Assembly (NCBI RefSeq): GCF_055900595.2
Contig: NZ_CM148325.1
Direction: 5' to 3' (one strand)
DNA: 64,000 bases
Made by a program: the position numbers and the translations under genes. Under the pieces are notes generated by a model. It saw nothing but the letters and a program-made list of their open reading frames with translations. It was not told where the DNA came from and did not search any database. This document shows, piece after piece, positions 30,691-43,339 of this stretch. Position 1 is the stretch's first letter. Each line of letters begins with the position of its first letter.

Positions 30691-30878
30691 TCTTACTCGT
30701 TGGAAATCAACACAGGAGGCTGGGAATGCCGCAGAAATATAGATTACTTTCTTTAATAGTGATTTGTTGCACGCTTTTATTTTTCACCTGGATGATAAGA
30801 GATTCACTGTGTGAATTGCATATTAAACAGGGGAGTTATGAGCTGGCGGCATTTTTAGCCTGCAATTTGAAAGAGTAA
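30666..30878 (+). CDS. mokA: Mok-type reading frame overlapping and in-frame with hokA (translational coupling ORF)
   Basis: 70-codon ORF starting MPEHHKVSLLLVGNQHRRLG then continuing into Hok; architecture matches known chromosomal hok/mok loci. Confidence 0.5.
   Translation: MPEHHKVSLLLVGNQHRRLGMPQKYRLLSLIVICCTLLFFTWMIRDSLCELHIKQGSYELAAFLACNLKE
30726..30878 (+). CDS. hokA: Hok-family type I toxin (50 aa membrane peptide)
   Basis: MPQKYRLLSLIVICCTLLFFTWMIRDSLCELHIKQGSYELAAFLACNLKE; AGGAGG 6 nt upstream of ATG; terminator hairpin GGCGGGAAGTTATTCCCGCC follows. Confidence 0.85.
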   Translation: MPQKYRLLSLIVICCTLLFFTWMIRDSLCELHIKQGSYELAAFLACNLKE

Positions 30879-31065
30879 GAGTCTTCGGCGGGAAGTTATT
30901 CCCGCCTTTCTTACGGCGTTGCGCATTCTCATTGCACCCAAATTTATTTTTCACAAAAATAATAATAGATTTTATTACGCGATCGATTATTTATTTCCTG
31001 AAAAACAAATAAAAAAATCCCCGCCAAATGGCAGGGATCTTAGATTCTGTGCTTTTAAGCAGAGA

Positions 31066-34931: not shown

Positions 34932-37265
34932 TTGGCCAACTCATCCTCACGTTATTCTGTTCTTACTGCCGCTCACTGGGGGCCCATGCTGGTTGAAACC
35001 GACGGCGAAACCGTGTTTAGCTCGCGTGGCGCGTTAGTCACAGAAATGAAAAACTCCTTGCAGAGTGCGGTTCGCGACCAGGTTCACAGCAAAACACGGG
35101 TACGATTTCCAATGGTGCGCAAGGGCTTTCTCGCGTCACCGGAAAACCCGCAAGGCATTCGTGGGCAGGATGAATTTGTTCGCGTGAGTTGGGATGAGGC
35201 GCTGGATCTCATCCATCATCAACATAAACGCATTCGTGAGGCTTATGGTCCGGCATCGATTTTTGCTGGTTCCTACGGCTGGCGTTCAAACGGCGTGCTG
35301 CATAAGGCCTCGACATTATTACAACGCTATATGGCGCTGGCAGGCGGTTATACCGGGCATCTGGGGGATTATTCGACCGGTGCAGCACAGGCGATCATGC
35401 CGTATGTCGTGGGGGGCAGCGAAGTTTATCAACAGCAAACCAGTTGGCCGCTGGTGCTGGAACATAGCGATGTCGTGGTGTTGTGGAGCGCTAACCCTCT
35501 CAATACGCTGAAAATTGCGTGGAATGCATCCGATGAGCAGGGGCTTTCTTACTTTTCCGCACTGCGTGACAGCGGGAAAAAGCTGATCTGCATTGATCCA
35601 ATGCGATCGGAAACCGTCGATTTCTTTGGCGATAAAATGGAGTGGGTGGCACCGCACATGGGCACCGATGTTGCGCTGATGCTGGGGATCGCCCATACGC
35701 TGGTGGAAAATGGCTGGCACGACGAAGCGTTTCTGGCGCGTTGCACCACAGGTTATGACGTCTTCGCCTCTTATTTGCTGGGCGAGAGTGACGGAATAGC
35801 GAAAAATGCCGAATGGGCGGCAGAAATTTGTGGGATTAACGCAGAAAAAATCCGCGAACTGGCGGCTATTTTTCATCAAAATACCACCATGCTGATGGCT
35901 GGCTGGGGAATGCAGCGCCAGCAGTTTGGTGAGCAAAAACACTGGATGATCGTCACCCTGGCAGCAATGTTAGGGCAAATCGGCACGCCTGGCGGGGGCT
36001 TTGGTCTTTCTTACCATTTTGCCAATGGTGGTAACCCTACGCGCCGCGCTGCGGTGCTTTCATCTATGCAGGGCAGCTTGCCAGGTGGCACCGATGCGGT
36101 AGATAAAATCCCCGTAGCCCGTATTGTTGAAGCTCTGGAAAACCCTGGCGGTGCATACCAACACAATGGCATGAACCGTCACTTCCCGGATATTCGTTTT
36201 ATCTGGTGGGCGGGCGGCGCCAACTTTACTCATCATCAGGATACCAATCGCCTGATTCGTGCCTGGCAAAAACCGGAGCTGGTGGTGATCTCCGAATGCT
36301 TCTGGACGGCAGCGGCGAAACACGCCGATATCGTCCTCCCTGCAACCACCTCGTTTGAGCGTAATGACCTCACCATGACCGGCGATTACAGTAATCAGCA
36401 TCTGGTGCCGATGAAGCAAGTGGTGCCTCCACGTTATGAAGCGCGTAATGATTTTGATGTCTTTGCCGAGTTGAGTGAACGTTGGGAGAAGGGCGGCTAT
36501 GCGCGGTTTACGGAAGGAAAAAGTGAGCTGCAATGGCTGGAAACGTTTTATAACGTTGCACGGCAGCGCGGGGCAAGCCAGCAGGTTGAATTGCCGCCAT
36601 TTGCTGAGTTCTGGGAAGCCAACCAGTTAATTGAGATGCCGGAAAACCCGGACAGCGAGCGGTTTATTCGCTTCGCCGATTTTCGCCGCGATCCGCAGGC
36701 GCATCCATTAAAAACCGCCAGCGGCAAGATTGAAATCTTCTCGCAGCGTATTGCCGATTACGCTTATCCGGATTGCCCTGGGCATCCAATGTGGCTGGAG
36801 CCGGACGAATGGCAGGGCAATGCCGAACCGGAACAGTTGCAGGTACTTTCTGCTCATCCGGCACATCGTCTGCACAGCCAGCTGAATTACAGTTCTCTGC
36901 GCGAATTGTACGCGGTGGCAAATCGTGAGCCTGTCACCATTCATCCTGACGATGCCCAGGCGCGCGGCATACAAGATGGCGATATTGTTCGGTTGTGGAA
37001 CGCACGCGGGCAAATTCTTGCCGGAGCGGTCATTAGCGAGGGAATTAAACCTGGCGTGATTTGCATTCATGAAGGGGCATGGCCGGATCTGGATTTAACC
37101 GCTGACGGTATTTGTAAAAACGGCGCGGTGAACGTTCTGACCAAAGATCTCCCCAGCTCGCGGCTGGGGAATGGCTGTGCGGGTAATACGGCGCTGGCAT
37201 GGCTGGAAAAATACAACGGTCCGGAACTGACACTTACAGCGTTTGAACCACCGGCCAGCTCATAA
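34932..37265 (+). CDS. bisC: biotin sulfoxide reductase (molybdopterin oxidoreductase)
   Basis: 777-aa ORF beginning with TTG at 34932 ([25 protein letters not shown]...); DMSO-reductase-family motifs. Confidence 0.9.
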
Positions 37266-37674
37266 TCCAGGTGGGTAGTTGGGTTTCATCCTGCCATGCG
37301 CAGTCGACAATGTGAAAACCCTGCGCATGGTAAAAATCTATCGCCGGTTGATTTTTTTGATAAACCTCCAGCATCAGATGGGGATGGCGCTGCTGCACAT
37401 ACTGCATTAGCGCCTTACCAATACCGCGTCTGACGGCCTTCGGTGCGACAAACATTGCAGCCAGAAATCGGCCTTCCATAATGCTGACAAAACCGAGAAG
37501 CTTACCGTCTTCTTCCCAGACCCAGTTTTGCGCGTTGGCAAGATAGGCATCCCGCACCAGCGGAATGCAATCACGCCAGTAATTCGCTTTTATAAAGGGA
37601 TGCCCCCAGGTTGTACTTTCCAGCCACAATTCGAGGATCGCGGGGAGTTCTGAACGTTGCGCTTCCCGAATCAT
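37234..37674 (-). CDS. yiaC: GNAT-family N-acetyltransferase
   Basis: 146-aa ORF; 3' end overlaps bisC 3' end by 32 bp (convergent); start overlaps tag stop (ATGA). Confidence 0.85.
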
Positions 37675-38234
37675 GGTTTATTTCCCGGATAGCAACAGCA
37701 GCCAACCACATGATCATTCACCAGCCCACATGCCTGCATAAAGGAGTAACAGATTGTGGTACCAACAAACTTAAAACCACGCTTTTTCAGGGCTTTAGAT
37801 AGAGCGTCGGAGGCGGGCGTAGATGTAGGGATTTCGCTCAACGTTGTGGCTTGTGTCACCTGTGGTTGATGATTGACAAACGACCAAACAAAGTCGGCAA
37901 ACGGTTCGCCGTTCTGTTCCATTTGCAGGTACGCTCGCGCATTACCAATAATTGCCTGAATTTTCCCGCGATGGCGGATAATCCCGGCGTCCTGTACCAG
38001 TCTTTCGACGTCCTCTTCCTGCATTGCAGCCACCTTCACCGGATCGAACTGATGAAAGCAGGCGCGATAGTTTTCGCGTTTTTTGAGGACGGTGATCCAC
38101 GATAACCCTGCTTGTTGCCCTTCAAGGCAGATCATTTCGAACAGTTTTTTACTGTCAGTTTCAGGCACGCCCCACTCATTATCATGGTAGGCAATATAAA
38201 GCGGGTCCTGACTCACCCAGCCGCAACGTTCCAT
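37671..38234 (-). CDS. tag: DNA-3-methyladenine glycosylase I
   Basis: Start at MERCGWVSQDPLYIAYHDNEWGVPETD gives 187 aa; track ORF carries a 79-codon upstream extension. Confidence 0.9.
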   Translation of the reverse strand: MERCGWVSQDPLYIAYHDNEWGVPETDSKKLFEMICLEGQQAGLSWITVLKKRENYRACFHQFDPVKVAAMQEEDVERLVQDAGIIRHRGKIQAIIGNARAYLQMEQNGEPFADFVWSFVNHQPQVTQATTLSEIPTSTPASDALSKALKKRGFKFVGTTICYSFMQACGLVNDHVVGCCCYPGNKP

Positions 38235-42633: not shown

Positions 42634-42710
<77 letters not shown>

Positions 42711-42719
42711 ATTTAGAAA

Positions 42720-42745
42720 AACCAGCCTACGGGCTGGTTTTTTGC
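42720..42745 (+). terminator. proK terminator
   Basis: CCAGCCTACGGGCTGG followed by TTTTTTGC, 10 nt after the tRNA 3' end. Confidence 0.8.
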
Positions 42746-42759
42746 TTTCTGCGACCTGA

Positions 42760-42885
42760 AGAGGATAAGAACCTCCGGGGGCAGAGAGGTTCGACTCGAG
42801 CAAAGCGAGAGAACGTTGCGTCAGCAACGGCCCGCAGGGCGAGCCACGCAGTGGCGAGTAATCCTCTGGCACCGACCAAATCTGA
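42760..42885. other. Degenerate tRNA-like segment ending in a near-copy of the proK 3' end
   Basis: AATCCTCTGGCACCGACCAA (42860..42880) versus proK 3' end AATCCTCTATCACCGACCAA; upstream GAGGTTCGACTC resembles a T-arm. Confidence 0.4.
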
Positions 42886-42889
42886 ACGT

Positions 42890-42970
42890 AGGCCTGATAA
42901 GACGCGTCAGCGCCGCATCAGGCAACGGCACCGCACTTATTGTCGGATGCGGCGTGAACGCCTTATCTGA
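42890..42970. repeat. REP/BIME palindromic elements
   Basis: GCCTGATAAGACGCGTCAGCGCCGCATCAGGC and GTCGGATGCGGCGTGAACGCCTTATCTGACC. Confidence 0.8.
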
Positions 42971-43339
42971 CCGACACACCACATATTTCCCTGCCAAATT
43001 TGCGCCCCACATCTCACTATCCATTAACGGATTTGTGACAGAATCCATTGTCTTTTTTTATATTTGCTTAAATCTTTTTTTGCGTTACTTATGGCTGGCG
43101 CTGGCATTTTCCGCTGTGCGTTTTAGCGTTCATGGTATTAATCGCTCAGATATCCATCTTTTCCTCAGATTTTTTTCATTAAATGCATAAAACTTAATCA
43201 CCAAATGTTGCTAAATATTAAGCTGATTGTTCTGGTTATGTTGGCGTAGCACAAATTTCTCTGCTGCAAATAGCTGTTTGAAGTTTTTTTAATCTTTGTT
43301 TGTGGATTCTCACCGTTGGTGTAAATCCCGGTTGGCTGT

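Follow-up and report, generated by a model that had tools for sequence, protein, structure and literature searches.

The excludon concept is said to go back to Toledo-Arana and Lasa, and Rho-dependent termination of untranslated antisense read-through was reportedly described by Peters et al. in 2012. Convergent overlaps of coding sequences have been counted in E. coli, with totals of 58 (PMC2174442) or 75 (PMC4161906). Among convergent overlaps of at least 5 nt, phase 123:132 is the commonest, at 49% (PMC2174442). The bisC/yiaC pair analysed here has the same phase and likewise consists of two real coding sequences that share their 3' ends. The stop-codon-mutation model fits its origin, and its conservation across species is typical of overlapping pairs. 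Qualitatively it is no different from other prokaryotic convergent pairs, but its 32 bp exceed the modal overlap of 4 bp.

Convergent excludons were listed with ExcludonFinder (NAR, 2025), and yiaC-bisC belongs to the resulting MG1655 'excludome'. Overlapping transcripts and dsRNA processed by RNase III are common to the pair and the class. Mutually exclusive expression, the outcome by which the class is defined, is only putative for yiaC-bisC. In addition, the overlap in excludons is UTR-based, whereas that of bisC and yiaC joins coding sequence to coding sequence and is present whatever the transcript boundaries. Bidirectional intrinsic terminators (SEnd-seq; RNAP-collision model, bioRxiv 10.1101/2022.10.23.513370) usually occur between convergent genes without a spacer, an arrangement shared by bisC and yiaC. 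The pair differs from them in having neither a hairpin flanked by an A-tract and a U-tract nor discrete mapped 3' ends. The RNA made beyond yiaC is untranslated and antisense to bisC, like the read-through found to be terminated by Rho (Adams et al., 2021). The bisC entry is classed there as 'antisense', as are many others (PMC7815308), and nothing specific sets it apart. Judged by the comparisons described below, bisC and yiaC are two real protein-coding genes, and their tail-to-tail overlap is genuine, ancient and ordinary.

Sequences and comparisons

The window, i.e. the whole stretch of DNA analysed, comprises 64,000 nucleotides of E. coli DNA from contig NZ_CM148325.1 (NCBI RefSeq assembly GCF_055900595.2). 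The comparison set contained 15 genomes from 10 genera, all Enterobacteriaceae. Sequences were fetched from Salmonella, Citrobacter amalonaticus, Raoultella/Klebsiella-type, Enterobacter ludwigii, Kosakonia, Lelliottia, Phytobacter and Pseudescherichia, and from five further Escherichia lineages. A scan of genome contigs with YiaC yielded Escherichia-level loci only, and for the other genera the genomic context was obtained via YiaC protein homologues and their encoding contigs. Substitutions were compared in 11 lineages, and the variability of the flanks was determined on an ungapped stretch (one lineage, L010, has a one-codon indel).

Coordinates and annotation of the overlap

The following features were taken from the list of open reading frames, the sequence and RefSeq.

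34932..37265, plus strand: bisC coding sequence, biotin sulfoxide reductase of 777 aa, TTG start, TAA stop at 37263-37265 (ORF list; identical coordinates in RefSeq)
37234..37674, minus strand: yiaC coding sequence, GNAT lysine N-acetyltransferase of 146 aa, TAA stop as the reverse complement of 37234-37236 (ORF list; RefSeq)
37671..38234, minus strand: tag coding sequence, 3-methyladenine DNA glycosylase I, first gene of the tag-yiaC operon (RefSeq; sequence; Christensen et al., 2018, PMC6199490)
37234..37265, both strands: convergent overlap of the coding sequences, which takes in 2 nt of BisC codon 768, codons 769-777 and the bisC stop, and on the other strand 2 nt of YiaC codon 137, codons 138-146 and the yiaC stop

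The 3' ends of bisC and yiaC are unambiguous in the annotation because they are defined by stop codons. Both stop codons lie inside the coding sequence of the partner, on opposite strands, as in a convergent overlapping pair. Codon positions 1, 2 and 3 of bisC face positions 1, 3 and 2 of yiaC. A convergent 3' overlap of 32 bp had been claimed in an earlier note on this DNA, and the claim was borne out by the ORF list, the stop codons and the RefSeq annotation of two strains. In strain 2013C-4282, which is 100% identical to the window over the probe used, bisC and yiaC have identical coordinates in RefSeq. K-12 MG1655 has the same 32-bp overlap, with yiaC at 3713652..3714092 (+) and bisC at 3714061..3716394 (-); the identity of the window to K-12 was ~97%. 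The 'yiaC-tag operon' of the earlier note needs a small correction in gene order: tag lies upstream and is followed by yiaC, and the tag stop and the yiaC start overlap by 4 nt (ATGA, 37671..37674).

In this phase, bisC has only 0.028 antisense stops per codon and yiaC only 0.034. At least 9 antisense codons stay open with a probability of ~0.75, and some 10 open codons in a row are what chance alone would give. Within the first 50 kb of the window, two of the 8 convergent pairs of coding sequences overlap, namely hokA with a 23-aa ORF (24 bp) and bisC with yiaC (32 bp), and 4 more are separated by gaps of 29-48 bp. The existence of the bisC/yiaC overlap is certain, and its length is not unusual.

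Protein C-termini

The C-terminal 200 aa of BisC align to the DMSO/TMAO reductase structures 1eu1, 1dms and 7l5i (E ~1e-60), and the alignments stop 2-4 residues short of the C-termini of these proteins. In the comparison with Rhodobacter DMSO reductases, the BisC tail was aligned to residue 778 of 780 in 1eu1. The C-terminal pattern of BisC, …VEKYxGxxVTxTxFxxP, is common to DMSO/TMAO reductases, and bisC orthologues bear Molybdopterin Pfam domains. Because the tail aligns near the ends of the DMSO/TMAO reductases, the bisC stop lies at the place typical of the family. The BisC tail is, to judge from these alignments, ancestral. A C-terminal extension of BisC as the origin of the overlap was ruled out, since the tail matches solved DMSO reductases right up to their ends.

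For YiaC, 199 homologues were found, which are 146-148 aa long across Enterobacteriaceae and have GNAT Pfam domains. Lysine acetyltransferase activity of YiaC has been shown experimentally (PMC6199490) and is the product name in NC_000913.3. In the AlphaFold2 (AF2) model, YiaC adopts a confident GNAT fold (pLDDT 94.9), which closes with the last beta-strand at residues 133-140 (LPTWIMSW); residues 141-146 form a coil with a mean pLDDT of 60. Among 25 homologues, P134, T135, W136, M138 and W140 were invariant, and position 137 was Ile in 22/25 and Leu in 3/25. No invariant residue was found past W140, where the tail varies. The YiaC tail, and not the end of BisC, looks like the added part of the overlap.

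Conservation and substitution pattern

In 15/15 genomes, representing 10 genera, bisC was located convergently downstream of yiaC and overlapped with it. The overlap measured 32 bp with a 146-aa YiaC and 38 bp with a 148-aa YiaC. Its two ends coincide with the following codons.

37261..37266, minus strand: YiaC codons Ile137-Met138, ATT ATG (ATC ATG in some genera), the complement of which holds the bisC stop TAA/TGA
37233..37238, plus strand: BisC codons Leu768-Thr769, CTT ACA, the complement of which holds the yiaC stop TAA, or TGA with CTC

In all 15 genomes, the bisC stop (TAA or TGA) was found in the complement of yiaC AT(T/C) ATG. In the AF2 model, both Ile137 and Met138 fall within the last beta-strand (133-140). 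At the other end, bisC CT(T/C) ACN holds the yiaC stop in its complement. Where Leu768 is encoded by CTG, yiaC is read 6 nt further, as far as the CTT AC that comes before it in the LTLT motif, and YiaC gains two residues, giving the 148-aa/38-bp variant.

Variable sites made up 9/32 (28%) of the overlap, versus 47% of the neighbouring stretch that encodes BisC alone and 60% of the one that encodes YiaC alone. The overlap was the most conserved 32-nt window among 364 scanned. Of the yiaC third positions, 18% were variable inside the overlap versus 94% outside; for bisC the values were 55% inside and 98% outside. A dual-coding signature, i.e. purifying selection in both frames, was thus present at the overlap. 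In the first 23 nt (37234-37256), all variable sites were bisC third positions; they left BisC unchanged except for Glu/Asp at 772 and replaced residues in the disordered tail of YiaC. In the remaining part (37257-37265), the varying BisC residues 776-777 lie opposite the fixed YiaC residues I137, M138 and W140. Double constraint was confined to about 6 nt (around 37252-37257), where BisC P774-A775 face YiaC P141-W140.

Termination of the convergent transcripts

The earlier note had found no room for terminators in this arrangement. For an intergenic terminator this holds by construction, yet termination is not absent, as a Rho-dependent region has been mapped (PMC7815308). Since no space exists between bisC and yiaC, each transcript runs antisense into the other gene, and termination must fall inside the partner gene. 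The following sites were considered.

37149..37171, minus strand: candidate terminator-like hairpin with a weak U tail (z = -2.85), located within bisC codons DLPSSRLG, 63 nt beyond the yiaC stop
37292..37332, plus strand: palindromic hairpin beyond the bisC stop, formed within yiaC codons H116-A-Q / C125-A-W and followed by an A-run and not by a U-run
~36982, minus strand: region within bisC, on its antisense strand, where Rho terminates the read-through from tag-yiaC (coordinate transferred from MG1655 3,714,344 (+))

No conserved intrinsic terminator was detected inside the coding sequence of either partner by folding, a terminator scan, comparison of 15 orthologous sequences and covariation. 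The region contained 4 terminator-like sites vs 2.9 +/- 1.7 in shuffles, i.e. no excess. The minus-strand hairpin is kept in Escherichia, Enterobacter, Lelliottia and Phytobacter and degraded in Salmonella, Citrobacter, Pseudescherichia, a Raoultella-type genome and Kosakonia. The lists of Adams et al. contain no Term-seq 3' end at its MG1655 equivalent (PMC7815308). It is probably not a functional terminator.

The plus-strand hairpin (z = -3.8) has a folding energy of -20.2 kcal/mol in the window strain vs -10.9 in K-12, and is absent in four genera. Its covariation was 0.062 vs a shuffle mean of 0.067, and this value was matched by 312/500 shuffles. In Salmonella, an apparent compensatory exchange (A-U to U-A) is offset by broken pairs elsewhere in the structure. 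This hairpin was judged to be neither a terminator nor a conserved RNA structure. As regards a bidirectional terminator, the A-run is on the wrong side at 37292..37332, and the U tail at 37171..37149 is weak.

The curated Term-seq 3' ends of Adams et al. (2021) include none on either strand of MG1655 between 3,713,200 and 3,714,399, where the genes are weakly expressed (PMC7815308). For bisC read-through into yiaC/tag, neither a 3' end nor a Rho region is given in these lists (PMC7815308). Read-through from yiaC is represented by the Rho region at 3,714,344 (+), which is annotated as 'antisense bisC' and begins to act 252 nt beyond yiaC, counted from its stop to the peak (Supp. file 2 of Adams et al., 2021; PMC7815308). 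Its upstream/downstream coverage was 90/23 without bicyclomycin (BCM) and 60/112 with BCM, i.e. read-through rises with the inhibitor; the Rho score was 7.3 (p 5.5e-14) and the position is of low resolution (800-nt windows, one condition only; PMC7815308).

Antisense RNA at the overlap

The mutually antisense 3' ends proposed in the earlier note agree with two published data sets, the RNase III dsRNA (PMC7373196) and the ExcludonFinder listing (PMC12288877). The duplex was located as follows.

37246..37268, both strands: RNase III 21-bp dsRNA 'bisC yiaC', with strands 37248..37268 (+) and 37246..37266 (-) (PMC7373196, Table S3)

The 'bisC yiaC' duplex was obtained by p19 capture and has 2-nt overhangs; it was represented by 184 + 90 reads, corresponding to 2.16 + 1.06 RPM (Huang et al., 2020; PMC7373196). 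Its sequence gave an exact single match in the window, at the overlap. The pair yiaC-bisC is also among the 165 convergent excludons present in at least 50% of 58 MG1655 transcriptomes (PMC12288877). Transcript overlap in vivo and RNase III processing of the duplex were both found in the literature.

Alternative explanations

An artefact, either a sequencing error or a mis-called gene with yiaC or the tail of bisC untranslated, is hardly conceivable as the source of the overlap, and no point in its support was found. A 91-nt probe across the junction had a match of at least 95% identity in 5,420/5,426 complete E. coli genomes; this check excluded the sequencing error considered in the earlier note. 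The same junction was present in nine other genera, and the population and cross-genus data together ruled out both error and misannotation. Purifying selection on both reading frames through the overlap, the match of the BisC tail to solved DMSO reductase C-termini and the experimental characterisation of YiaC (PMC6199490) also speak against an artefact. A different proposal concerns intrinsic terminators embedded in the partner genes, at 37171..37149 (-) for tag-yiaC and at 37292..37332 (+) for bisC, which would give a defined transcript overlap of ~100-200 nt. It is in line with the folding of both hairpins in the window strain, which is better than in shuffles, and with the detection of the minus-strand hairpin by the terminator scan. 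Moreover, rho-independent terminators within the partner have been predicted for 20% of the genes that take part in convergent overlaps in E. coli (Lillo and Krakauer, PMC2174442). Such terminators are nevertheless very unlikely here: terminator-like sites were no commoner than in shuffles, and the plus-strand hairpin precedes an A-run, is weak in K-12, is missing from four genera and lacks covariation. On the minus strand, the U-tract is poor and five genera have lost the hairpin. The interval devoid of Term-seq 3' ends and the bicyclomycin-sensitive termination further downstream (PMC7815308) argue in the same direction. Embedded intrinsic terminators were rejected on the basis of folding, the 15 orthologous sequences and the covariation count on the plus-strand stem.

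BisC repairs oxidised biotin/methionine. A functional link with YiaC is conceivable, yiaC being up-regulated under oxidative stress (PMC6199490). The overlap might then be a selected convergent excludon, in which RNA polymerase collision and RNase III cleavage make the expression of bisC and tag-yiaC reciprocal. This would fit the overlapping transcripts in at least half of the 58 transcriptomes (PMC12288877), the RNase III-cut dsRNA at the overlap (PMC7373196) and the conservation of the arrangement in all 10 genera sampled. Selection for an excludon was nevertheless considered unlikely. Coding constraint on the two strands suffices to explain the conservation, and an ExcludonFinder listing is nearly automatic for two expressed overlapping coding sequences. 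The dsRNA is near the detection threshold (1-2 RPM), and dsRNA from 3' overlaps is on average 37.9-fold less dense than that from 5' overlaps (PMC7373196). Few reads cover the locus in the Rho data (~90 per 800 nt), so collisions should be rare. Reports of anticorrelated expression of bisC and tag-yiaC were not found in the literature. The putative transcriptional interference between bisC and tag-yiaC, suggested in the earlier note, is plausible. A family-wide excludon that couples BisC (oxidative-damage repair) reciprocally with tag-yiaC (alkylation repair and lysine acetylation) is distinctly unlikely. If it existed, induction of yiaC by oxidative stress would lower or reshape bisC mRNA via collision and RNase III, or the reverse would apply.

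Persistence of the overlap

The bisC/yiaC overlap is very probably a tolerated, frozen by-product of compaction, with antisense read-through cleared by Rho and RNase III. A tolerated by-product is the most likely interpretation, and a dedicated regulatory device is unlikely. The bisC stop would be pinned by the YiaC Ile137-Met138 codons, which belong to the last GNAT strand and are under purifying selection. The yiaC stop would likewise be pinned by the BisC Leu768-Thr769 codons of the family-conserved C-terminal strand. In both cases the cause was inferred from comparative sequence. With each stop pinned by conserved codons of the partner, the overlap would persist. Inside it, BisC LTAF(D/E)PPA faces the disordered YiaC tail 141-146, whose residues track synonymous bisC changes, and YiaC I137-M138-x-W140 faces the variable last two residues of BisC. 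As only the ~6 nt described above are constrained by both proteins, the overlap would be cheap and its length frozen. Published data show that Rho stops the read-through from tag-yiaC ~250 nt inside bisC, and that bisC and yiaC RNAs pair at their complementary 3' ends into dsRNA, which is cut by RNase III. Coding constraint accounts for the conservation of the overlap, yet its strictness across about ten genera might, less probably, also stem from selection for a regulatory interaction.

The overlap is already known; it is contained in the reference annotation, the pair has been catalogued, and sequences of its RNA products are available. The dsRNA product and the Rho-dependent region are already in published supplementary tables. 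The significance of the overlap hardly goes beyond bookkeeping. The case also calls for caution, in that a conserved overlap is not evidence of function. Stop pinning together with a tolerant disordered tail would explain the conservation across Enterobacteriaceae without regulation. Pinned stops and a disordered tail that absorbs the synonymous changes of the partner would make bisC/yiaC a concrete example of why overlaps freeze.

Antisense transcription within bisC

The start codon of bisC is annotated as TTG at window position 34932, and a TTG at the same relative position is likewise annotated in K-12. At least one more RNase III duplex is located inside the gene (MG1655, U00096.2 3713189..3713212, 261 and 170 reads), according to Table S3 of Huang et al. 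(PMC7373196), in which bisC appears four times; two of these entries underlie the present analysis. This duplex precedes the bisC stop codon by approximately 1.1 kb and indicates antisense transcription at a greater depth within bisC than the published Rho-dependent termination region near the end of yiaC.

Additional features of the window

A second convergent overlap of coding sequences was found in the window, formed by 24 bp (30854..30877) of hokA and a hypothetical ORF:

30725..30877, plus strand, hokA (annotation)
30854..30925, minus strand, hypothetical ORF of 23 aa (annotation)

The pair ysaE-hokA is contained in the ExcludonFinder list of convergent excludons (PMC12288877) and may be the same pair.

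RtT sRNA repeats are described in the RefSeq feature note as processed from the tyrT transcript; those of the window instead adjoin a tRNA-Pro gene, which they directly follow:

42634..42710, tRNA-Pro gene (RefSeq annotation)
42745..43032, two RtT sRNA repeats (RefSeq annotation)

Structure and conservation of the yiaC ends

Two features were assigned to yiaC and its junction with tag, the upstream gene of the operon:

37292..37332, palindrome of 10-12 bp in yiaC, codons H116-A-Q and C125-A-W
37671..37674, minus strand, co-directional overlap of the tag and yiaC coding sequences, 4 nt, ATGA

Strong forms of the palindrome occurred in the window strain and in Salmonella, Kosakonia and the Raoultella-type genome; K-12 had a weak form, and the remaining genera compared had none. 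Covariation was tested at this site across the orthologues and none was found; the palindrome is therefore probably a coincidence of codon choice.

In one complete E. coli genome, BE104 (NZ_CP040643.1), the match to the junction started only at window position 37226. The bisC side was absent, and yiaC and its stop codon were intact, suggesting a deletion or rearrangement with its endpoint 8 nt outside the yiaC stop.

Comparison of the window with loci L008-L015 at the tag/yiaC junction revealed that the length of the tag-yiaC overlap differs by genus, and the C-terminal tail of Tag was variable. E. coli and E. albertii shared a 4-nt overlap (ATGA), E. whittamii had one of 1 nt and Kosakonia one of 20 nt. 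Salmonella, Citrobacter, Enterobacter, Lelliottia, the Raoultella-type genome, Phytobacter and Pseudescherichia all had an overlap of 23 nt. Both ends of yiaC are therefore overlapped by neighbouring genes throughout the family.
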